The notes under the pieces are model-generated. The model did no database searches. It was not told the origin of the DNA and saw only the letters and a program-made list of their open reading frames with translations. A stretch of 64,000 nt of DNA from Scenedesmus sp. PABB004 (taxonomy: Eukaryota): contig JABVCE010000004.1 in the NCBI GenBank assembly GCA_014905635.1, positions 992,001 through 1,056,000 on the forward strand, in the 5' to 3' direction. Each line of letters begins with the position of its first letter. Position 1 is the stretch's first letter. The position numbers and the translations under genes are program-made. Positions 18,678 to 31,499 of this stretch are shown here, one piece after another.

Positions 18678-19436
18678 GCGGCGGCGGGCCCGGCAGCAGC
18701 GTGGCCAGCCCCGCGCCGTCAGCCGGCGCCGGCGGCAGCCAGCGGGGCAGCCAGCAGCCGTCGCGCGGCAGCACGCCGGCCGGCGGCGCGTCGGCCGGTG
18801 ACGCCGCGGCGCCCGGCAGCCGCGAGGGCTCGGCGCACCCCGCCGCCGACGGCGACGGCGTCGCGGCGGCAGCGGCCGGCGCGGCTGCCGACGACGCGGC
18901 TGTCGAGCGGCGCCGCAAGGGCCTGGTGCTGCTGTTCAGGCTTCCCTTCAAAGACATGCCAGAGCGCTACCGCCTGCACCCGGCCTCGCTGCCGCGCGAG
19001 GCCGCCGCCGCGTCGGCGGCCGCGCTGCTGCAGGAGCTGCGCGCGGAGCGGGAGCGCGCCGCGGCCGGCGCGCCGGCGGCAGGGCAGCCCGCCGCCGCGC
19101 CGCCGCCGGGCCGCCCGTCGTCGCGCCGTCGCCGCCGCCGCCCGAGCCGGCGCCGTCGGCGGCCGGCGCGCCGTGGCTGGCGGTGGGGCGCTGCGTGCGC
19201 GTGTTCTGGCCCGACGACGTCGCGTGGTACGCGGCGGACGTGCGCGGCTTTGACCCCGCGACCCGGCGGCACACGCTGTGGTACCACGCGGATGAGGTCA
19301 GTGAGCAGCTCGACCTGGCGGCCGAGGACGCGGCGGGCCGCGTGCAGTGGCTGCCGCCGACGGACAGCAGCCGCTGGCCGCCGCCGCCGGCGCCGCCCGA
19401 GCCGGCCGGCGGCGCGTGGGGCGCGGCCGCGCCGGC

Positions 19437-19483
<47 letters not shown>

Positions 19484-21840
19484 TTGCGGCGCCGCCGCCC
19501 GAGCCGGAGCCGCCGCGGCCCGAGGCGGTGCCGCCGGGCTTCCCGCGCCTGACCGCGATGCTGCGCGACCCCACGGCGCCCGGCAGCGTCGACCTCGTCG
19601 GCCTGGCGGCGTCGGGCGCGCCGCTGCGGGAGCAGCTGGCGCGCCTGCTGCGCGCGCAGCGGGACGCGCACGCCGTGCACGGCCGCGCGCAGCCGTCGCT
19701 CGCGCAGCTGCCGTCGGGCGCGGGCCTCGTCGGCTGGCGGCTCGGCGTGTTCTGCGCCCCGGCGGGCGTCTTTTACTACGGCCACCTCACCACGTACCCT
19801 GGCAGCGGGCAGCACGCGATGTGCTTCGACGACGGCGTCGCGTGCGCCATCTCGCTGCCCGCGGAGCGCCTCGACTGGGTCGCCAGCGGCGGCCAGGCCG
19901 CGACTGCGGCGGCGCAGGGCGCGCACGCGGCGTACATGCAGCGCCGCGCGGCGGCCGCCGCCGCGCACGCGGCGTGGCAGCAGCGCCGGGCGCTGAGCGC
20001 CGCCGCCGCCGGCGGCGGCGGCGAGCACCTGGCGCGCCTGCTGGCGGCGCAGGTGCAGCAGGTGCAGGGCGAGCTCGCCGCGCTGGGCTGGCGGCAGGGC
20101 ATGCCGGTGCCGCTGCACGTGCAGGCGCGCATGGCGCAGCTCGCGGCGCTGCAGACGCAGATCGCGGGCGCCGCCGCTGCCGCGGGCGGCGGCGCGGCGG
20201 CGCCGCTGCCGGCGCACGCCGCGCACGCCGCGCCGCGCGCCAGCGGCGGCAGCGGCGGCGGCGGTCCGCGCCCCGGCGCGCCGACGCGCGTCGACGTCGT
20301 GTGCGGGGCGCACATGGGCCAGTTTGACTGCCTGCGCTCGGCGGTGTCGCTGCCGTCGGGCGCGGTGGTCAGCCCGACCGAGTTTGAGCGCCTCAGCGGC
20401 AAGGGCGCGAGCAAGAAGTGGCGCGCCACCATCCGCGTGCGCAAGGCCAACGGCCTGCCCGGCATCACCCTCGGCGACTGGCTGCTGCAGCAGGGCTACG
20501 ACGCGCCCGCGAGCGCCGCGGGCGGCGGCGCCGCCGCCGCCGGCCGCGGCGGCGGCGGCAGCCTCAACGACATCCGCCGCAGCCAGCAGCAGCGCAAGGC
20601 CGCCGCGCAGGCGGGGCTCGGCGGCGCGCACCGCGCGGGCTGCCTGTGCGTGGCGTGCAAGGCCGCGCGGCGCCGCGGCGGCGCGCCGCCGGCCCCCGCC
20701 GCCGCCGCGGCGCCGGCCGCCGCCGGCGTCGGCTACAAGCCGCTGCCGCTGCGCAGCGCCCCCGGCGGCGCGGCGCCGCTGGGCGAGTCCGCGCGGCGCC
20801 GCGCCAAGCTGCTGCCCGCGCTGCTGCTGGGCAAGCGCGCGTACGTGTCGGCGGTGCCGCACCTCGTGCGCGGGCCGGCGGTGCACAGGCCCTGGCAGCT
20901 GCCGGAGAGCCGGGCCTACTCGGCCGACGAGTGGGAGGCGCGCCAGCGCGGCGGCGGCGGCGCGGCGGCCTCGGACGGCCCCGCCGCGGGCAGCGCCGGC
21001 GAGGGCGGCGGCCGCGCGGGCACGCCCGGCGCGGGCGGCAGCCGGCCGGGCACGCCGGCGGCGTCGGGCGGCGATGGCGGCGGCGGCGGGTGCGGCGACG
21101 CCATGGCGGTCGACAGCGCCGCCGTGGACAGCAACGCGGCGGCGTCCCAGCAGGCGGCCGCGGCGGCGGCGGCGGCGGCGGCGGCGCTGCCGGGCGGGAC
21201 GCCGCCGCCGGCGGCGGGCGCGGACCGCGGCGGCGAGAAGCGCGGCAGCCGCGCGCAGACGCTGCGCGAGCGCCTGCGCGCGTGCCGCGCGCTCGAGCCC
21301 CGCCGCATCACGTTTGGCAAGAGCGGCATCCACGGCTGGGGCGTCTTTGCGCGCGCGGCCATCCCCGCGGACGCGATGGTCACCGAGTTTCGCGGCGAGC
21401 TCGTGCGCACGGTGCTCGCGGACGTGCGCGAGGCGGCGTACCGCAAGCAGGTCTGTGCGCGCCCGCGCCCGGCGGCGGCGGTGGCTGAGCCCCCGCCAAC
21501 CCGTTCAGCCCCTGAGCCCCGACGCCGCCGCCGCCGCCGCCCCGCGCCGCCGCTCTGCACACAGGCGCGCGACTGCTACATGTTTCACGCCGCCGACGCG
21601 ACGGTCATCGACAACACGGGCGCCGGCAACCACGCGCGCTTCACCAACCACTGCTGCGCGCCCTGCCTCTACGCCAAGCCGCTGGAGCTGGGCGGCGACG
21701 TGCACCTCGCCTTCTTCGCGCGCGCTGACATTGCGCCCGGGCAGGAGCTCACGTTTGACTACCGATTCAAGGAGGAAGACACCGAGCACAAGGTCCTCTG
21801 CCACTGCGGCGCGCCCAACTGCAAGGGCACGCTCAACTGA
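18535..21840 (+). CDS. ATX3/4/5-like (trithorax) histone H3K4 methyltransferase: Tudor-like, SAND, SET and post-SET; start not found
   Basis: GRCVRVFWPDDVAWY (Tudor-like); SPTEFERLSGKGASKKWRATI (SAND); FGKSGIHGWG, ARFTNHCC, ELTFDYRF, CHCGAPNCKG (SET/post-SET). In-frame intron 21451-21564; frame change near 19115. Confidence 0.85.
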
Positions 21841-22162: not shown

Positions 22163-22420
22163 ATGGGCGAGGGCGGCAGCAGCGCCGCCTGCCCTGCAGG
22201 CACCACCATCTGCTGCGCGCTGGACGGCCCGCCCAGCTCGCGGGAGGGCCTGCGGTGCCGCTTCCCCGGCGCAGGCGACGTTCCAGCGTCGGTGTGCGGC
22301 AGCACCGTGTGCTGCACGCCGCCGCCGGGCGCGGTGCGCGGCGCCCGCTGCTGCCGCTGCCGCGGGAGGCTGCTGCGGAGGCAGCGGCGGCTGCTCCGCG
22401 CTGCTGCTGGCCCCTGGGCG
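22163..22420 (+). pseudogene. Third, diverged copy of the Cys-rich exon 1 (22163-22333) plus part of its intron
   Basis: [57 protein letters not shown] followed by a GTGCG donor. No exon 2 found. Confidence 0.7.
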
Positions 22421-22565
22421 TCAGCGACGGCAGCCGACCAGCACAGCGGAAGCGCTGCGCCGGGGCCGTTCGATGACACCTGGATTACGTCTTGGCGGTT
22501 TGACCAGCGACGACGCGTTTTACAGCGCTGCCCGCTTCCAACCCCGCCGCTGCGGCCACGCCGGC

Positions 22566-25500
22566 TCATCGCACGAGCGTGAGGCACGGGCCGCAGCGCA
22601 GGCCGCCGACGTCGTCGCGCAGGAAGGCGGTGATCGCGGTCGCGGCCGCGGAGCACGCGACCGACGCGACGAAGCACCACCCCAGCCCCGCGGCGGGCGT
22701 CCCGCCGGCGTAGGTGTAGAGCGCACCGGACGCCAGCGTGCCGGCGAGGCGGCCGCCAGCATTGGCGAAATAGTAGAAGCCCACCTGTGGACATTGCACG
22801 GGCGTGGGCCGGGGCGCGAGCGGTGCCGCCGACCCGCCGCCGCAGGTTGGCGCCCCCCAGGTTGGGCGCGGTGGGGCGCGGCGGCGGAGGGCGGTTCAAG
22901 CGCCCACGGCAGCCCACCGTCATGGCGGCCTTGTCGCCCTGCGCGTAGCGCACGATGAGGTACGAGTGCACCGCCGAGTTGACCGCAAAGAGCACGCAGT
23001 ACACGACCAGGCCCGAGAGCAGCACGCCCGCCATCGCGCGCACGTCGCGGCCCGCAAACACGGGGCTGCCCAGCACCACGGCCGCGAGGTAGGCCGGCGC
23101 GAGCGTGAGCAGGCCGTTCCAGAGCAGCTCCGTGTACTTGTTGGCCGGGCTCTGCCGCAGCGGCTGCAGCACGAGCTGCGGCGTCCAGCTCTGCACCTGG
23201 CCGTAGAGGATGATGAAGCCCTGTCGCGTGGGAGGGAGGTGCGAGGGAGGTGCGAGGGAGGCGAGGGGGTCGTAGGGCGAGGGCGAGCGCGGGCGCGCCG
23301 CCGAGGCGCGCGGCCCCGCGCGCGCGCCGCGCCGCGCCGCGCCGCGCCGGACGCACCGCGAGCACCGCGCCGACGGCGACGCGCTGCCAGCCGAGGCCGT
23401 GGGCCGCGTCGCGGAGGAAGAAGGGCAGCGGCACCTCGAACCAGCAGTCGCGCGAGCCAAAGAGGAAGAAGCGCGCCGCGCTCAGCACGTTGACGTTGTA
23501 GCGCTGCCGCAGGAGCTTGGAGAGCTTCACGTTCTCCTTGCGCGCCCTGCGGCGCAGCGGGGCGGCGCGCTCGGCGCGCGCGGCAGCTGCGGCGCGCCCA
23601 GCGCTCGCGGCGCGCCCCGGGCCGCGCCCCGCTGAGCCCTGCGCCGCGCCGCGCGCGCGCGCCTGCCGAGCTGGTTGGACAGACCCACGACCGCCCACGG
23701 CATCGCCGCCGCGACGAGCACGAGCAGCACGCCCAGCGCAAAGTTGTACGACTGACGCGCGGGCAGGCGGCAGGGAGGCGGCGCGGCGCGCGGCTGGGTG
23801 GCCTGCTGCGCCAAGCGAGCGAGCGGCGCGAGCCCGCGGCGGGGGTGGCCGCGGCCGCGGCCTGCGCCGCGGCCGCAGCAGCCGCGCCGCGTTCGCGACC
23901 CCGCGCGCGCGCGCGCCGCACCAGCGTGAGCGCCGCGGCCCCGATGAAGTACCCCACGCCCTTCATGCTGTTCTTCCAGCCGGTGATGAACGACACGACC
24001 TTGAACAGCCGGCTCTGAGAGTGAAGGACGCGGGGGCGAGCGGGCGCGGCGGGTGGCGGCGGTGAGAGGGCGCGAGGCGGCGCGGAGAAGGGCAGGGGGA
24101 AGGGAGGCGGCCGCGCGCCGCGGCGCGCCTGCTGCTCCTCGGGCGTGACGAGCTTGGTGACCGTCTTGCCGCCGAGCTTGGTGAGGTCCTTTGCCACGCC
24201 GCAGAGCATCTGCGCGGCGGTCACAAACACGACGCCCTTGGCCTGCTGCGACGGCTGCGCCCACGCGTCCTGCCAGCCGAAGAGCATGCCGATGCCCGCG
24301 AGCTGCAGCGTCAGCCCTGCGGCGGCGGCAGCGCGCGTTCGCGCCCAGCGCGGGCTGCCCGCGCGCGCCGCCGCCCGCGCCGCCGCCCGCCGAGCGCCGA
24401 GCGCGCGGCGCGGCGGCGCACCGGTGAGGAGCGTGGTCTTGATGCCCCAGCGCGCGCCCATGAGTCCGGCAAGCAGGTTGGTCACGACGCCGGCGAGCTC
24501 GTAGAAGGAGAACATGATCGCGGTCTGCCACGCGCTGAACCCAAGGTGGTAGGCGTGCAGCAGCACGATCATGCTGCGCCGCGCCAGAGCGGCGGCGGCC
24601 GGCGGCGGCGGGGACGGGCGTCGGGGGCGTGGCGGGCGGCGCGCGGCTGCCGCGCCGCGCCGCGTGCCCCGCCCCCGCGCGCCGGGACGGGGGGGAGGGG
24701 ACGGGGCGCTGCCGTGCCGCACCGCACTGCGCCGTCTGTGGTGGTGAAGAGGAGGTATGAGAGGGAGATGATGACAAAGGGCTTCAGCGCAGAGTACTCG
24801 CGCCGCAGGTACCTGGGCGCAGCGCGGCGAGACGCGCGGCACGCGGCGCCAGGCCGCGCGCGGCGCGGGGCCCAGGGTCGGCGGGGACGGGCGGCAGCGG
24901 CAGGGCCGCGGGCGGCGGCCGCGGCGGAGCGCGCGCGGCACCCGCGTGCGCGCACTCGCTGCGGGTCTCGTCTGCGCGGCGGCCGAAGTCGGCGCCGCCG
25001 GTGGCGGCCTGTGCGTCGTCTTTGGCGCAGCTGGCTGGCGCGGCCTCTTCGAGCAAACTGCGGCAGGTGGTGCGGCTGCGCTTCAGCGCGTGGAGAGCGC
25101 CGAGCCTCAGGTGCCTGGCCGCGGCAGCTCCCCCCCCCTGCCCTCCACTGCCCAGCGGCGCAGCGCGCGCACCTCTGGTGCTGCGCCTCATAGCTGGGGC
25201 TCTGATAGATGGCCCGGTCTGCGGCGTCCACGACCGCGAAGCAGTCCCCTACCTCATCCTGCGCGTGCCGCGGTGGCAGCGCGCGGCGTGAGCTGTGACG
25301 GCACCAGCTGCCCCCCCTGGCGCCGGGGCCAGCAGCAGCGCGGGGCAGCCTCCAGCGGCAGCGGCGCAGCCGCGTCGGCAGCGGCAGCAGCGGGCGCGGC
25401 GCACCGCGCCCGGCGGCGGCGTGCAGCACACGGCGCTGCCGCACACGGACGCTGGCACGTCCCCTGCGCCGGGGAAGCGGCAGCGCAGGCCCTCCCGCGA

Positions 25501-25572
25501 GCTGGGCGGGGCGTCCAGCGCGCAGCAGATGGTGGCGCCCGCGGGGCAGGGGGCGCTGTCAGTCTCGCCCAT
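22566..25572 (-). CDS. arsJ: ArsJ-like organoarsenical efflux MFS transporter with Cys-rich N-terminal extension
   Basis: YLLFTTTDGAVRMIVLLH, FYELAGVVTNL, GVAKDLTKLGGK, TGWKNSMKGVGYFIG, LSAARFFLFGSRDCWFEVPLP, FAVNSAVHSYLI, VGFYYFANAGGRLAGT. Exons join in phase, including two GC donors. TGTAA at 22524-22520. Confidence 0.9.
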
Positions 25573-25880
25573 GCTGCCGGCTGTCTGACCGCGTGGAGGG
25601 AGCGGCGAGCTGCCCAGCGCGGCAGGCGCGCACTGGCCGAGTTCCGAGACCCGGGACGCATATGCCGCCCCCTCGATTCCCGTCAGCCCCGCGACACACC
25701 GCGCGACGCCGCTGCCGCCGGACCGACACCGCGATCGCCCCGCCGCCGCACGCACCGCGCCGTGCCAGCAGTGCCGCCCGCCGTGGCCGCTGCCGCTGCC
25801 GCTGCCGCTGCCGCCGCGCCCGCACGCGCCGCCATGCCGGTCAGGGTCGCGATCAACGGCTGCGGCCGCATCGGTGAGAT
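25130..25880. repeat. Inverted repeat, left arm (arsJ exons 1-2, bidirectional promoter, orphan GAPDH exon 1 at 25834-25873 on +)
   Basis: Near-identical reverse complement of 28018-28750. Confidence 0.92.
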
Positions 25881-26092
25881 TACAGACGTGGCGTCCGGCC
25901 CACGTGTTGAGGCTGCCGCAAGTGCCGGCGCCTGGTCAACCGCAATGACAGAGTTCAGGGCGCGACGCCGGCGCGCTGGTGCGGAGTTTGGTGTCTTGGT
26001 TGTTGGTTGGTTCCACGCGCTGCTCGCAACCGGGCTGGCTCCACGACCCGCCGCGTCACTGCCACGCGCCGGCGCTCATGTGCCGGGCCGCG

Positions 26093-26135
26093 TCACGCCT
26101 GGCCCTTGGCCACGATGGCCGCGAGGTCGACCATG

Positions 26136-26168
<33 letters not shown>

Positions 26169-28064
26169 GCGTAGATCTTGACCATGCTGCCGTCAATCAC
26201 CTGCAGAGCGCCGTCCAACGCGGCGGCGCGGCGGCGCCGGCGGCGTCAGCGCGCGCCTGTCGGCGCCCTCTGTGCGCGAGGAGCGGCGGCCTCACGCGCC
26301 TGCCCGCGCGCCCGCCCCACCTGCGTGCACGCCGCGTCCACGATGGAGCTGCGTGCGTCGTTCACGTAGTCGGTGCTCACCAGCGGCCGCTCCTCAAAGC
26401 CCAGGATGCCGCGCAGGTAGGTCGCCGACGCCTCCTGCGGTGTGGTGTGTGGGTGTGGGTGTGGGTGTGGGTGTGGGTGTGGGTGGAAGCCGCGTGCGTG
26501 GCGCGGCGCGGCGGCTGGCGCCGCGCCGCCGCGCCTTGAGCAGCGCGTTGACCTCCTCCGCGCTGGTGCCGCGCTTGACCTCAAACACGCAGTCCGTGAT
26601 GGAGCTGTTGGTGAGCGGCACGCGCACGGCGAGGCCGTTGAGCTTGCCCTTGAGCTCAGGGAAGATCAGGGCGATCGCGGTCGCGCTGCCCGTGCTCGTG
26701 GGCGCGAGGTTGACCAGCCCCGACCTGCGCGCGCGCGCGCGCGGGGCGGGCGGGCGGCGGCCGCGAGGTCGGACGGCGGCCGCGCCGTCGCGCCCCCGCG
26801 GCTGCGCCCCGCGGCGCGGCGCGGCGCGGCGGCGCCCCGCGCGCGCGCACCGCGCGCGGCGCAGGTCTGTCTTCTTGGTGTTGGGTGCGTCGACGAGCGT
26901 CTGCGTGTTGGTGAGGTTGTGGATGGTCGTGATGCAGCCGTGCACGATGCCGAGCTTCTCCTGGATGACCTTGACCACCGGCGCGAGGCAGTTGGTCGTG
27001 CACGACGCGGCGGTGACGATGTCGTCGACCTCAGGCTTGTACAGGTGCTGGCGCCAGTCACGGGCGGGCGGGTGGGCGGCCGGGCGGGTGGCGGCGGGCG
27101 GCGGCGGGCAGCGGCGGCCGGCGTGGGGCGGCGCGGCGGCGGCCGGCCGGCGCGGCGCCACGCGTGCAGCTGCCGATCGGGCGGCGGCGGCGGCGGCGGC
27201 GGCGGCGCACGTCGTTCACGCCGACCACGACGTTGAGCACGGGGTTTGGGTCCTTGACCGGCGCGCTGACCACGACCTTGCGCACGCCCTTCTCAAAGTA
27301 TGGCGCCAGCGCGGCGCGCGTGAGGAAGGCGCCCGTGCACTCCCAGACCTGGTCCAACTTGCCCAGGCCGGCATAGTCCAGCTGCACCGGCGGCAGCGCG
27401 GGCGGCAGCGGCGGCGCGGCGGGGCAGGGTCGCCCGGCGCGGCCGGGCGCGCGGCCGGCGTGGCGCGCGGGGGCAGCGCACGGCGCCGCACCTCGGCCGG
27501 CGTCTTGGCCTGGGTGTAGGGGATGCGCGCCACGCGCTCGCCAGCCGTGACCACGATGCAGCCGCCCTCCACGGTCACACCGTGCCCCGCCCAGGTGCCT
27601 GCGCCGCGCGCCGGCGCCCGGTGAGCGGCGGTGAGCGGCGGCGAGCGGTCGCGGCTGCGCGAGGCTCGGCGGCAGCGGCGCCCGCGCACCGTGCACGCTG
27701 TCAAACTGGATGAGGTACGCGGTGGACTCGGCGGACGCGAGGTCGTTCAGGTGCACAAACTCAAACTCGCCCGGCCGGTCGAACGCCACCCGGAACGCGA
27801 GGCGGCCTGCGGCGCGCGGCGCAGGTGCGCGGCACGCAGTGCGCGGCGCGCGGTGCGGTCTCAGCGGCGGCGGCATCAGGCGGCGGGGGACTGCACCCTG
27901 CTGGCCTGCTGCGGGGCGTGCTGGTGGTGCTGCTGCCGCTGCTGCTGGTGCCGCCTCTTGCTGCTGCCGGTACTTCGCCCCTGCGCGCGGGATCTGGGCC
28001 CTCCACGTGTGTTATGCATCTCACCGATGCGGCCGCAGCCGTTGATCGCGACCCTGACCGGCAT
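26093..28064 (-). CDS. Glyceraldehyde-3-phosphate dehydrogenase, ArsJ-associated type
   Basis: [102 protein letters not shown]. These resemble bacterial ars-operon GAPDH more than GapA/GapC. TGTAA at 25884-25880. Confidence 0.92.
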
Positions 28065-28750
28065 GGCGGCGCGTGCGGCGCGGCGGCAGCGGCAGCCGCC
28101 GCGGCGGGCGTCACTGCTGGCACGGCGCGGTGCGTGCGGCGGCGGGGCGATCGCGGTGTCGGTCCGGCGGCAGCGGCGTCGCGCGGTGTGTCGCGGGGCT
28201 GACGGGAATCGAGGGGGCGGCATATGCGTCCCGGGTCTCGGAACTCGGCCAGTGCGCGCCTGCCGCTGGGCAGCTCGCCGCTCCCTCCACGCGGTCAGAC
28301 AGCCGGCAGCATGGGCGAGACCGACAGCGCCCCCTGCCCCGCGGGCGCCACCATCTGCTGCGCGCTGGACGCCCCGCCCAGCTCGCGGGAGGGCCTGCGC
28401 TGCCGCTTCCCCGGCGCAGGGGACGTGCCAGCGTCCGTGTGCGGCAGCACCGTGTGCTGCACGCCGCCGCCGGGCGCGGTGCGCCGCGCCCGCTGCTGCC
28501 GCTGCCGACGCGGCTGCGCCGCTGCCGCTGGAGGCTGCCCCGCGCTGCTGCTGGCCCCGGCGCCAGGGGGGGCAGCTGGTGCCGTCACAGCTCACGCCGC
28601 GCGCTGCCACCGCGGCACGCGCAGGATGAGGTAGGGGACTGCTTCGCGGTCGTGGACGCCGCAGACCGGGCCATCTATCAGAGCCCCAGCTATGAGGCGC
28701 AGCACCAGAGGTGCGCGCGCCGCTAGGGGCAGCAGAGGGGGCAGGGGGGC
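28018..28750. repeat. Inverted repeat, right arm (GAPDH exon 1, bidirectional promoter, PGK-like exons 1-2)
   Basis: Near-identical reverse complement of 25130-25880. Confidence 0.92.
28065..28310. promoter_or_regulatory. Putative bidirectional promoter between GAPDH and PGK-like (second copy at 25573-25833)
   Basis: 246 bp between divergent ATGs at 28064 and 28311. Confidence 0.7.
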
Positions 28751-30424
28751 GTGCGGCAGCCGCGCACAGCTCAGCCTCGCCACCGCCGCCGCCGCCTGGC
28801 AGGCTCGCGCAGGCGGGTGCGTCCAGCACCCTCGACAGCTGCATTGAGACCCTGCTGTCGCCGCGCCTGGACCTGGCGGCGCTGCCAGCGGGCGCGCTGC
28901 GCGGCAAGCGCGTGCTGCTGCGCGCCGACCTCAACCTGCCGCTCGGGCCGGGCGGCGGCGTGACCGACGCCACGCGGCTCGAGTCGCTGCTGCCGACGCT
29001 GCGGCTGCTGCTGGCGGGCGGCGCGCGCGTCGCGATCGCGTCGCACTTAGGCCGGCCTGAGCCGGCGCGCCAGAGCGAGGAGGAGATGCGTCGGCGCTTC
29101 AGCCTCGCGCCCGTCGCCGCGCTGCTGGAGCGGCTGCTGCCGGCCGGCGCGTTCGCGGGCCTGGCGCCCGACTGCGTCGGCCCCCAGGCCGCCGCGGCCG
29201 TCGACGCGCTGCAGCCCGGGCAGGTGCGGGTGGGCAGCGGCAGCGGCGGCCCGCGCCGCCGACGCCGTTGCCGACGCGCTGCCGCCGCTGCCGACACGCC
29301 GCCGCCGCCGCTGCGTCGCGGCAGGCGTGCCTGCTCGAGAACCTGCGCTTCCACGCGGGCGAGGCGAGCAACGACCCTGCCTTTGCGGCGTCGCTCGCAG
29401 CGCTGGGTGACGTGTGCGTGAACGACGCGTTCGGCGTCGTCCACCGCGACCAGGCCAGCGTCACGGTGCGCGGCGCGGCCGCCGCCGCGCCGCTGCCGCA
29501 CGGCCGCCGCTGCGCGACTGCAGGCGCGGCCGCCGACGCGGCCGCCGCCCGCTTGCCCGCGCGCGCAGGGCGTGCTCTGCCACCTGCGCGGGTACCCAGG
29601 GATGCTGCTGCGCGCGGAGCTGCGCCACCTGCACGGCGTGCGCGCCGCGCCGGCGCGCCCGTTTGCTGTCGTGCTGGGCGGCGCCAAGGTGAAGGACAAG
29701 CTCCCCGTGCTGGCCGCCCTGATCGCGCAGCAGCACGCGCCCGACCTGCTGCTCGTCGGCGGCCGCATGGCGTTCACCTTCCTCGCCGCCGAGGGCGTCG
29801 CCGTGGGCGCGACCCAGGTCGAGGGCGAGTGGTTGCAGGCCTGCCGCGACATGCGCGGCGCGGCGGCGGCGCGCGGCGTGCGCCTGCTGCTGCCGCGCGA
29901 CGCGGTCGTCGCGCGGTCGCTGGACGACGACCGCGGCTGCTGCACCGTGCCGCTCACGCGCGGCTGCTGCAGCGCCGACGCGCCGTGCGTGCCCGCGGGT
30001 GAGCGGCCAGTCACGCGCGCGCGCTCGCCGGCCGCGCGCGCACGTCGCTCAGCGCGCCCCGCCCCGCCGCGCGCCGCGCCGCGCAGGCTGCCACGGGCTG
30101 GACATTGGCCCGGCGAGCGCCGCCGCGTTTGCCGAGGCGCTGGTGGGCTGCCGCACCGTCTTTTGGAACGGCCCGATGGGCCGCTTCGAGGTGCCCGGCT
30201 TTGCCGCGGGCACCGCCGCGCTCGCGCGCGCCGTGGGCGCCGCGACCGAGGCCGGCGCGACGACCGTGATCGGCGGCGGCGACTCGGTCGCCGCGCTCAA
30301 CCAGCTGCGCCCGCGGCCGGCGGTCAGCTTTGTGAGCACCGGCGGCGGCGCCAGCCTGGAGCTCATCCAGGGCCGCCTGCTGCCGGGCCTGCGCGCGCTC
30401 GCCGACGACGGCCGCGCAGCGTGA
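28311..30424 (+). CDS. Phosphoglycerate kinase-like protein with Cys-rich N-terminal module
   Basis: [71 protein letters not shown]. Exons 28311-28478 and 28625-28710 splice in phase to 28803. TGTAA near 30436. Confidence 0.9.
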
Positions 30425-30509
30425 GCTGCAACGCCTGTAACCCGCTGCGTGCCCACCACCCCGATCTCCCGAGCGCACGCGGCCCAGTCGGCCGTCCCCT
30501 CGCTCAAGC

Positions 30510-31157
30510 ATGGCGCTCACCATCAGCACCGCCGCGCCGCGCCGGGCCGCCGTCGCCGCGCGGCGCGTGCCGGCGGCGCCGCCGCGCCGCACCGCGGTCG
30601 CTGTGCGCGCCTCCGCCTTCCAGGCGCCCTCCCACGGGGCCGCCCGCGCTATGGCAGGGGCGGCGGCGGTGGCCGCGGCGGCGGCGCTGCTGCTGTCCAG
30701 CCCGCCCGCGCTCGCAGCGGTGCCGTCCCCGGCCGAGGGCGCCACGCGCGAGGCCACCCGCGGCCTCGCGCCCCGCCGCGGCGCCCTGGCACCCGACGTG
30801 GCCGGCCAGGAGCGTGAGTGGCGCACGCTGGCGGCGGGCGCGCGCGCGCTGCAGGCGCGACCCGCGGTGCGCGCGCCGCCCGCGCCCGCAGGCGCGGGCC
30901 AGCCCGGCGCGGCGGCGCGCACGGCCGCGATGCGCCGCACGTTTGTCGCGGCCAGCAAGGAGAACCAGGACTTCGCGATGCAGGCGCGGCCGGGTGGCAG
31001 GCGGCGGCGGGCGAGGCCCGGCGATCGCGCGCGGCCCCTGCGCGGGCGCGCCCCCACGCCGCCCGCTCCCTGCCGCGCCCCGCAGAAGTACCCGGAGAGC
31101 GGCGTGCGCTGGCGCCGCGGCTGGCCCAACACCGAGGGCGCGGAGGGCCCGCAGTGA
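30510..31157 (+). CDS. Small plastid protein, possibly thylakoid lumen, of unknown function
   Basis: Transit-like leader (VAVRAS), then hydrophobic AAAAALLLSSPPALA. Two in-frame introns, the second with a GC donor at 30984. Confidence 0.6.
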   Translation: MALTISTAAPRRAAVAARRVPAAPPRRTAVAVRASAFQAPSHGAARAMAGAAAVAAAAALLLSSPPALAAVPSPAEGATREATRGLAPRRGALAPDVAGQEREWRTLAAGARALQARPAVRAPPAPAGAGQPGAAARTAAMRRTFVAASKENQDFAMQARPGGRRRRARPGDRARPLRGRAPTPPAPCRAPQKYPESGVRWRRGWPNTEGAEGPQ

Positions 31158-31499
31158 GCCCAGCACGCGCGGTGCGGCCGCTGGCGTCGCCGACGCGAGT
31201 TGGAGATTGCGTCGCGCGAGGCCGCTCGAGTTGCAACACGGAACCGCGCAGCCACGCGGCCCTGCAGCCGTCGTTCGCTAGCGCCGCCAATGCGGCAGCG
31301 CACAGCCCGCAGCAAGCCCTGCCCGATCACCTGGTCCAAAACTGCGGCCGGCCGCCGCGCGACAGCAGGCGCCGCAGCGCCGCACCAAAAAGAAGGGGGA
31401 GGCGCGCGCCTTGCCGCCCGGGCGCCCGCGGCGGGCGGGGCGCCCCAAAATCGCAGTCCAGGCAGGCCGGGTGTGGCGCGCGTGCCGGCGGCGGGGCGC

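Follow-up and report, generated by a model that had tools for sequence, protein, structure and literature searches.

The arsenate-detoxification genes of the green alga Scenedesmus sp. PABB004 raise the question of how a transporter gene (arsJ) and a phosphoglycerate-kinase-like gene (PGK3), standing on either side of a GAPDH gene (GAPDH3), could have come to begin with the same two exons behind copies of the same promoter. The window analysed here, to which all positions refer, is the whole 64,000 nt stretch at positions 992,001 to 1,056,000 of contig JABVCE010000004.1 (assembly GCA_014905635.1). The locus is the green-algal ArsJ-GAPDH3-PGK3 arsenate-detoxification neighbourhood, and in our reading GAPDH3 probably underwent an inversion with a staggered break, which duplicated a cassette of promoter and exons, put PGK3 under the shared promoter and fused an ArsJ domain to PGK3.

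At present the arsJ body is followed by a cassette, the inverted GAPDH body, a second cassette in inverted orientation and PGK, and a repeat search of the window located the two cassettes as inverted arms that flank the GAPDH body:

25134..25880, no strand assigned, left arm of the inverted repeat (747 nt)
28018..28749, no strand assigned, right arm of the inverted repeat (732 nt)
25573..25833, no strand assigned, left divergent promoter and 5' untranslated region copy (261 bp to the module ATG)
28065..28310, no strand assigned, right divergent promoter and 5' untranslated region copy (246 bp, GAPDH ATG to module ATG)
25405..25572, minus strand, module exon 1, arsJ copy (start codon 25572-25570)
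25173..25258, minus strand, module exon 2, arsJ copy (28 residues plus 2 nt; aligns with the ArsJ proteins P0129 and P0145)
28311..28478, plus strand, module exon 1, PGK copy (168 nt, 56 codons)
28625..28710, plus strand, module exon 2, PGK copy (86 nt)
25834..25873, plus strand, orphan GAPDH exon 1 copy with GT donor, in the left arm

Read from the inside outwards, each arm consists of about 8 nt of GAPDH intron 1, the 40 nt GAPDH exon 1, 246-261 bp to the next ATG, a 168 nt exon, a 146 nt intron, an 86 nt exon and about 37 nt of the following intron, and a unique, non-palindromic spacer of 2137 nt lies between the arms. Gapped global alignment of the arms gave 721 matches, 6 mismatches and 8 small indels (about 25 nt), an identity of 99.2% over aligned columns (6 differences in 727 positions), the gapless blocks being 486 nt at 97%, 202 nt at 95% and 61 nt at 100% complementarity. 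The indels fall mostly in a GC-rich promoter repeat and at the outer edge, and the mismatches are divided evenly between module exon 1 (one synonymous and one T/A replacement), the promoter (2) and the outer 34 nt (2); GAPDH exon 1, module intron 1 and module exon 2 show zero differences. In permissive blastn searches the right arm reached about 57-62% identity elsewhere in the window, and the cassette was absent from the rest of the 64 kb apart from a third, partial copy described below. The repeat is thus far above chance for the local composition; GC content at the locus is 72-86% in 500-base windows, and the genes carry introns.

The two outward exons, with predicted splice sites G|GTGCGC, GCAG|G and CAGAG|GTGCGC, encode an 84-residue module, to which an Arg shared at the junction is added; its Cys residues are at positions 9, 16, 17, 31, 44, 49, 50 and 62. 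An original prediction made from the sequence had described inverted repeats of about 0.74 kb around the GAPDH body, each arm with an inward-facing GAPDH exon 1, a divergent promoter of about 250 bp (246 bp in the right arm) and two outward exons encoding an 8-Cys module, and the alignment and exon structure above agree with it on each count. The orphan GAPDH exon 1 of the left arm stands behind a full promoter copy and is aimed at the 3' end of the real GAPDH gene, with no downstream exons on the plus strand; if active, it would give antisense RNA across GAPDH. Speculatively, since each arm has an inward GAPDH exon 1, the GAPDH segment might even flip by recombination between the arms and be functional either way.

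Pfam and NCBIfam scans were applied to the long open frames of the three genes, arsJ being scored exon by exon:

22566..24812, minus strand, arsJ body, from the region of the first transmembrane helix, TM1 (YLRREYSALKPFVIISLSYLLFTTTDGAVR), to the stop codon at 22566-22568 (NF033734, tblastn)
24813..25172, minus strand, predicted arsJ intron 2 (360 nt, GT..AG)
26093..28064, minus strand, ArsJ-type GAPDH (GAPDH3), with exon 1 at 28025-28064, the body from about 27808 and the stop codon at 26093-26095
28803..30424, plus strand, PGK3-type phosphoglycerate-kinase-like body of about four exons (PF00162, 5e-23 and 7.5e-33)

The whole arsJ gene, module exons included, spans 22566-25572 on the minus strand. 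The sole NCBIfam match of its exon open reading frames (ORFs) was NF033734 MFS_ArsJ (E 3.1e-33 and 1e-18), with bit scores under the whole-protein cut-off because single exons were scored, and tblastn showed the gene to be collinear with residues 112-585 of the ArsJ proteins P0129 and P0145 in 7 pieces at 53-86% identity. GAPDH3 gave Gp_dh_N and Gp_dh_C Pfam matches and keeps the catalytic SCTTNC motif; NF033735 ('ArsJ-associated GAPDH') was the best family for its two large ORF pieces (8.4e-60 and 1.1e-21) and ranked second for its last exon. The closest relatives of the PGK-like gene are algal PGK-like proteins at 51-66% identity, from Scenedesmus, Haematococcus, Monoraphidium, Raphidocelis, Chlamydomonas and Volvox, and the ortholog P0007 aligns to 28852-30403.

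Both outer ends of the cassette are predicted to splice in phase into a neighbouring gene, as the original prediction had proposed. On the right, joining the donor CAGAG|GT (28710/28711) to the acceptor TGGCAG|G (28802/28803) preserves the PGK frame; positions 28711-28803 contain no ATG, and the PGK frame has its first Met only within the core, after the RxDLNxP and SHLGRP motifs. The database protein P0001 ('pgk [Scenedesmus sp. PABB004]', 689 aa) consists of module exon 1, module exon 2 and PGK with identical junctions. On the left, the same donor (25173/25172) joins the acceptor CCCAG|G (24813/24812), also in phase, and the junction reads ..HQ-R-YLRREYSALKPF..; the product ..AQHQ-R-YLRREYSALKPFVIIS.. 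gives the start of the first ArsJ membrane helix, as in relatives. Window exon 2 is supported since the N-terminal domain of the closest relatives, P0129 and P0145, covers the same region. On these predicted in-phase junctions, arsJ and the PGK-like gene can begin solely with the two module exons. At sequence level, then, the earlier proposal of one cassette serving all three genes stands as regards the near-identical promoter copies and the in-phase exons, its account of the module as an unrecognised Cys-rich domain being the part that did not survive.

The predicted arsJ intron 2 is itself open in frame, with an Arg-rich translation, and its retention would leave the protein unbroken; ArsJ relatives carry a linker of 70-90 residues where it sits, and part of it could code for a linker instead.

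The distribution of the module identifies its original owner. When exon 1 was compared with 1.84 billion representative proteins using phmmer, 5 matches were obtained at E <= 0.001, namely P0001 and four short proteins from other organisms, two of which continue into the ArsJ TM1 motif GLKPFAIMC. A search for longer homologues of exon 1 returned only P0001, a result that says little, as it missed the domain-bearing ArsJ proteins. These emerged from the protein search with the arsJ exon, in which the best 120 of 527 proteins were examined and many green-algal ArsJ proteins (550-630 residues) were found to start with a domain of the module type, including those of Tetradesmus obliquus, several Chlamydomonas and Volvox species, Gonium, Astrephomene, Pleodorina, Chlorella sorokiniana, Parachlorella, Micractinium and Nannochloris. 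We aligned 24 such N-termini, the window module first (alignment A1), and built a hidden Markov model profile, which matched 32 of the 120 ArsJ-type proteins, always at the N-terminus (23 had been used to build the profile and 9 had not), and one of the 120 best PGK-type proteins, this being P0001. The 24 closest PGK relatives (P0006-P0029) are without the module and are all PGK-sized except P0027 (1031 aa); the 21 that could be aligned to their start begin about 17-55 residues ahead of the GKRVLLRxDLNVP motif. With the domain in ArsJ N-termini and P0001 its sole carrier among the 120 PGK-type proteins, the domain belongs to ArsJ and the kinase acquired it; by sequence homology, the module is the native N-terminal domain of green-algal ArsJ. 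The original prediction had asked which gene first owned the module, and this answers it; its occurrence in the ArsJ of many other algae, like the third copy of exon 1, had been missed. One ArsJ-type protein (P0171, 536 aa) carries two tandem N-terminal copies of the domain, at residues 13-86 and 132-202.

Metagenomic data were also scanned. Four close module sequences gave 232 pattern matches, of which tblastn confirmed 0. The arsJ exon retrieved 80 loci, distant and mostly from marine algae, with GAPDH and ArsJ head to head in 12, PGK and ArsJ head to head in 29 and ArsJ alone in 39; the N-terminal domain was not found in these 80 loci by tblastn at E <= 1e-5 with the first 85 residues of P0129, which is a weak test. 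In one of them (L072, 7700-10500) near-identical peptides (..LVPIRPRWRGERRSLRTF..) interrupt the GAPDH and ArsJ frames, and these stretches look like copies of one repeated intron element; the ArsJ of this contig is without the N-terminal domain.

As to what the module is, the original prediction had assigned it to no recognised family, whilst we find a conserved green-algal ArsJ N-terminal domain with a predicted immunoglobulin (Ig)-like fold of the IPT/TIG type. AlphaFold2 models of the window module and of the Chlamydomonas schloesseri domain were both all-beta, with predicted confidence (pLDDT) of 75 and 80.8 respectively. Each model was compared with 48,161 solved chains using VIA-align, and the same four entries came top for both, with the following Z scores for the window module and the C. 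schloesseri domain respectively:

CAMTA1 TIG domain, Z 4.9 and 6.9, root-mean-square deviation 2.4 and 2.6
plexin A2, Z 5.1 and 6.6
plexin A4, Z 4.7 and 6.2
BCAP DBB domain, Z 4.7 and 6.1

The IPT domains of EBF, Rel/NF-kB and NFAT ranked next. Pfam assigned TIG_plexin to 5 of the 24 A1 members (best E 0.0054), TIG_2 to 2 and TIG to 1, and no family outside TIG had more than one stray match; the window module itself had no Pfam match. A profile search of PDB placed plexin A2 and A1 at the top (E 0.2-0.44), with the LxCxF and VxCxxP motifs aligned, whilst a search of the ESM Atlas with residues 1-85 of P0001 gave no usable match by features. In the supplement of Foflonker and Blaby-Haas (PMC7826186), the InterPro list in the row for Chlamydomonas and Volvox ArsJ includes IPR013783 (Gene3D 2.60.40). 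These individually weak lines agree, and we read the module as a predicted Ig-like domain of IPT/TIG type that lies below Pfam thresholds.

How the cassette came to be present twice is probably explained by a staggered-break inversion. In the ancestral layout a single bidirectional promoter would have served arsJ and GAPDH3, arranged head to head, PGK3 would have lain downstream of GAPDH3, and the first two exons of arsJ would have encoded the N-terminal Ig-like (IPT/TIG-type) domain; the left arm, in which arsJ and GAPDH exon 1 lie back to back, is taken as ancestral because ArsJ owns the module. GAPDH3 would then have inverted once, the left break being staggered over the 0.74 kb that comprise arsJ exons 1-2, the promoter and GAPDH3 exon 1, and a second break falling between GAPDH and PGK, before fill-in and rejoining. 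One copy of the cassette would have remained on arsJ and the other would have moved, inverted, to the PGK3 side. In this way arsJ would have retained its promoter and domain, GAPDH3 would have retained its own exon 1 and promoter, and an orphan GAPDH exon 1 would have stayed in the left arm, whilst PGK3, cut from its own 5' end, would use the copied promoter and splice in phase to two arsJ exons. The result would be three genes behind copies of one promoter, with PGK3 a chimera bearing the ArsJ N-terminal domain.

Two features of the repeat are consistent with such an origin. Firstly, both of its ends are intronic and just past donors, taking in about 8 nt of GAPDH intron 1 on one side and 37 nt of arsJ intron 2 on the other, so that all products are predicted to remain spliceable. 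Secondly, the pattern is L-A-inv(M)-inv(A)-R, duplication being confined to one of the breakpoint regions, and this is a documented product of staggered-break inversion (Ranz et al., 2007; PMC1885836). The part of that study drawn on here reports inverted duplications of unique sequence at 17 of 29 Drosophila inversions, often at one breakpoint only, with a median of 321 bp and a largest duplicate of about 1.9 kb. Gene order within the cluster varies among Chlamydomonas, Volvox and Ostreococcus, judged from the gene identifiers in the PMC7826186 supplement, which indicates that the cluster has been rearranged internally yet stays together. The 12 of 80 metagenomic loci with GAPDH and ArsJ head to head lend further context to the proposed ancestral layout.

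The third copy of the cassette, missing from the original prediction, is the following:

22163..22460, plus strand, third, older partial cassette copy (exon-1-like ORF at 22163-22333 plus part of intron 1)

Its exon-1-like ORF has 57 codons, keeps all 7 exon-1 Cys and contains one in-frame 3-nt indel. Its identity to both arms is 94-95% over 22180-22362 (183 nt), drops to 77% over the 52 nt that follow and comes close to background in the flanks; overall identity is 73.5% over 596 nt, against 57-62% for the background. Exon 1 carries 6 synonymous and 6 non-synonymous differences, a ratio of their proportions (pN/pS) of 0.37. The copy sits just past the arsJ stop codon and is aimed into the 3' end of arsJ, so that the arsJ body, too, has inverted repeats on either side, this copy and the left arm. 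As a separate gene it was rejected, no copy of exon 2 (blastn, 64 kb window), no downstream exon on its strand and no gene for it to feed having been found.

A number of observations weigh against the account given above. All splice junctions are predictions; P0001 is an automatic annotation and so gives no independent proof of them, and joining in phase has by itself a 1 in 3 chance. The protein database search yielded no arsJ protein of this genome, the best match of an arsJ exon being 83% identical, so that the arsJ model with the module rests on our reading of the sequence and on homology to P0129 and P0145. With regard to the fold, all VIA-align Z scores are below 8, rated middling, Foldseek gave no match in PDB at E <= 0.001 and the Pfam TIG matches are under the gathering cut-off (TIG_2, 13.3 against 23.4 bits). 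For the Scenedesmaceae the ancestral head-to-head orientation of arsJ and GAPDH3 is presumed; the 80 loci noted above come from distant marine algae, and in 29 of them it is PGK rather than GAPDH that stands head to head with ArsJ, 39 showing ArsJ alone. The arms are so alike that the event would be very recent, unless gene conversion has acted, and were it very recent an intact PGK frame would say nothing on whether the chimera functions. Finally, the third copy keeps exon 1 at 94-95% identity whilst its flanks have decayed, which a single inversion does not explain; one guess is that an earlier inversion left it behind and that gene conversion has since held it close in sequence.

The alternative that fares best accepts the duplication as real and holds that the copied arsJ exons in front of PGK3 are unused, PGK3 having been decapitated recently and being a young pseudogene, or else starting elsewhere; in that case the copied cassette would have a role just as a promoter, if it had any. 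With the arms 99.2% identical, a dead gene would not yet have had time to decay, the in-phase joining of predicted junctions could be fortuitous at the 1 in 3 given above, and P0001 is the sole carrier of the domain among 120 PGK-type proteins. Moreover, the PGK exon covers nearly the whole N-terminus of the orthologs, which probably puts the former start only a few codons before 28803. However, no in-frame ATG occurs from 28711 to the PGK core, where the first Met falls behind two motifs of the kinase, all three junctions are GT..AG with flanks like those of other introns at the locus, and loss of the gene would probably be costly, since a Chlamydomonas pgk3 mutant is arsenate-sensitive (PMC7826186, in the part of the paper used here). 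We consider this alternative unlikely and prefer the chimeric PGK3 left by a staggered-break inversion.

A second question concerns what the domain does, for which conservation of its Cys residues across the 24 A1 domains is informative:

C16, Cys in 23 of 24 domains
C31, Cys in 24 of 24
C50, Cys in 24 of 24
C17, Cys in 10 of 24
C44, Cys in 5 of 24
C49, Cys in 4 of 24
C9, Cys in 3 of 24
C62, Cys in 2 of 24

Full conservation is seen for L29, C31 and C50, and conservation of 90% or more for C16, P53 and V65. The original prediction had argued from vicinal Cys pairs, of the kind that bind As(III), to a shared arsenic-binding, sensing or docking domain. The pairs, though, are not conserved and only C16, C31 and C50 are kept; with C17 and C49 at the frequencies above, the CC pairs are a feature of the Scenedesmaceae and not of the family.

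It is nonetheless conceivable that the module is chiefly a thiol-based As(III)-binding or sensing domain through which transporter and kinase would respond to arsenic together, a proposal compatible with an Ig-like fold. The module natively belongs to an arsenic transporter; its three near-invariant Cys lie on three predicted strands (15-18, 29-33 and 47-50), and the Scenedesmaceae forms gain 4-5 further Cys, 7 being invariant in 4 sequences. Three thiolates form the usual As(III) site in ArsR, ArsD and ArsA, and separate strands of an Ig sandwich could be neighbours in one sheet. Against this, not only are the vicinal pairs on which the argument was built unconserved, along with C9, C44 and C62, but C31 and C50 fall in LxCxF and VxCxxP, which are the parts matched to plexin A2; of the two, C31 alone is paired with a plexin Cys, C50 being opposite a Ser, and the residues beside them (L29, F33 and V48) are conserved hydrophobics, suggesting core positions. 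None of the Pfam matches at E <= 10 for the 24 A1 members was to an ArsD- or ArsR-type family. The substrate of ArsJ is, moreover, an As(V) ester and not As(III), according to the part of PMC7826186 used here. A primarily As(III)-binding role thus seems to us improbable, more doubtful even than that of unused exons.

Docking is favoured over metalloid binding because TIG domains found in the cytosol elsewhere mediate dimerisation or partner binding, and by this analogy we infer that the domain may serve for docking between proteins instead of binding metalloids through a Cys cluster. For a TIG domain in the cytosol it is unusual to have three invariant Cys, and these may yet have some thiol-based function. 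Prediction of a two-copy module complex scored 0.00 in a run that had no controls, and it is evidence neither way. Two further ideas for the N-terminus were set aside. The PROSITE myristoylation pattern excludes Glu following Gly2; an N-myristoylation/palmitoylation signal (MGxxxS) was dropped, with Glu after Gly2 and MG not conserved across the 24 domains. A CP12-like GAPDH-binding tail was considered, and no motif match was seen, no dedicated search having been made.

That one of the arms is an assembly artefact, a single real arm having been doubled from mis-joined reads or haplotypes as their near-identity might suggest, is hardly credible given the 6 substitutions and 8 indels between them, the 2137 nt of unique non-palindromic spacer, outer junctions that both run into intact genes in phase, a junction of the left arm with the GAPDH 3' flank that fits neither of two simple inversion haplotypes, a contig of 1.79 Mb and a diverged third copy that shows earlier copying of the cassette here.

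Some other features of the region were noted. A (GTGTGG)n-type microsatellite lies at 26438-26485, within a GAPDH intron. P0001 extends about 170 residues beyond the PGK domain (residues ~520-689; window 30425-31160, plus strand), whereas its orthologs end near 30403-30424; the extra stretch begins MALTISTAAPRR and looks like the beginning of a separate downstream gene that was merged by annotation. Upstream of the third copy, a long open frame at 18802-21840 (plus strand) ends in ..FDYRFKEE..CHCGAPNCKGTLN, a C-terminus that looks SET-domain-like from its motif.

If the staggered-break account is correct, the locus would be a small-scale example of how one inversion can copy a bidirectional promoter, shuffle exons between neighbours and keep a cluster co-regulated. 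Green-algal ArsJ proteins carry a predicted Ig-like N-terminal domain with three invariant Cys that is undescribed in the literature searched, and the predicted fusion of this domain to the kinase is a testable lead, namely that the domain brings proteins to a common place or partner. Were the docking reading true, the chimera would place PGK3 wherever the ArsJ N-terminus normally docks. Speculatively, and with little confidence, the ArsJ Ig-like domain might be a docking handle that holds the makers or recyclers of very short-lived 1-arseno-3-phosphoglycerate at the mouth of the transporter, with the three invariant Cys perhaps an arsenic or redox switch, and the inversion might have copied this handle onto PGK3. 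In that event the chimera would amount to a natural 'Rosetta stone' fusion, a sign that ArsJ is the physical place of action of PGK3, and the addition of a kinase to the two-gene system of bacteria would be accounted for in algae.

Set beside known systems, the locus combines familiar and new elements. The module resembles the IPT/TIG domains of plexin, CAMTA, EBF, Rel/NF-kB and BCAP (DBB) in its predicted beta sandwich and similar size, and its LxCxF and VxCxxP motifs align with plexin A2 IPT1; unlike these domains it scores below family thresholds, sits at the N-terminus of a transporter on the cytosolic side and has three invariant Cys. In the bacterial arsJ-gapdh pair, attributed to Chen et al. 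2016, the GAPDH is reportedly thought to make 1-arseno-3-phosphoglycerate, which ArsJ exports. The NCBIfam models of that pair are the best matches here, whilst the genes of the window are eukaryotic and intron-bearing and have an added PGK-like partner; an N-terminal Ig-like domain was not noticed in ArsJ matches of bacterial length (about 390-450 aa), for which no systematic check was made.

As in the Drosophila staggered-break inversions reported in the part of Ranz et al. (2007; PMC1885836) used here, a non-repetitive segment, of 0.74 kb, is found in opposite orientation at each end of the inverted stretch, duplication affects just one of the breakpoint regions, and its length falls inside the range given for Drosophila. 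The present case differs in being a micro-inversion of a single gene body of 2.1 kb within a gene cluster, and in that both ends of the duplicate are intronic, so that the duplicate forms an exon-shuffling cassette. The cluster itself is known: ArsJ-GAPDH3-PGK3 is a published gene neighbourhood for arsenate detoxification that green algae conserve (Foflonker and Blaby-Haas, Mol Biol Evol, PMC7826186), and in the part of that paper drawn on here Chlamydomonas arsJ and pgk3 insertion mutants are arsenate-sensitive and the authors describe the enzymatic role of the PGK-like gene in arsenate resistance as unknown. A term search of the main text of that paper found no discussion of an ArsJ N-terminal domain or of promoter sharing, and the literature searched seems to contain no description of the cassette duplication, of the ArsJ-domain/PGK3 chimera or of the domain. 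The Chlamydomonas cluster has the same three adjoining families, the order ArsJ-GAPDH3-PGK3 matches its gene identifiers, and its PGK-like gene belongs to an alga-specific group of core chlorophytes that includes the window gene; in the window, by contrast, both intergenic regions are copies of one bidirectional promoter, GAPDH3 lies between inverted repeats and PGK3 is predicted to carry the N-terminal domain of ArsJ.

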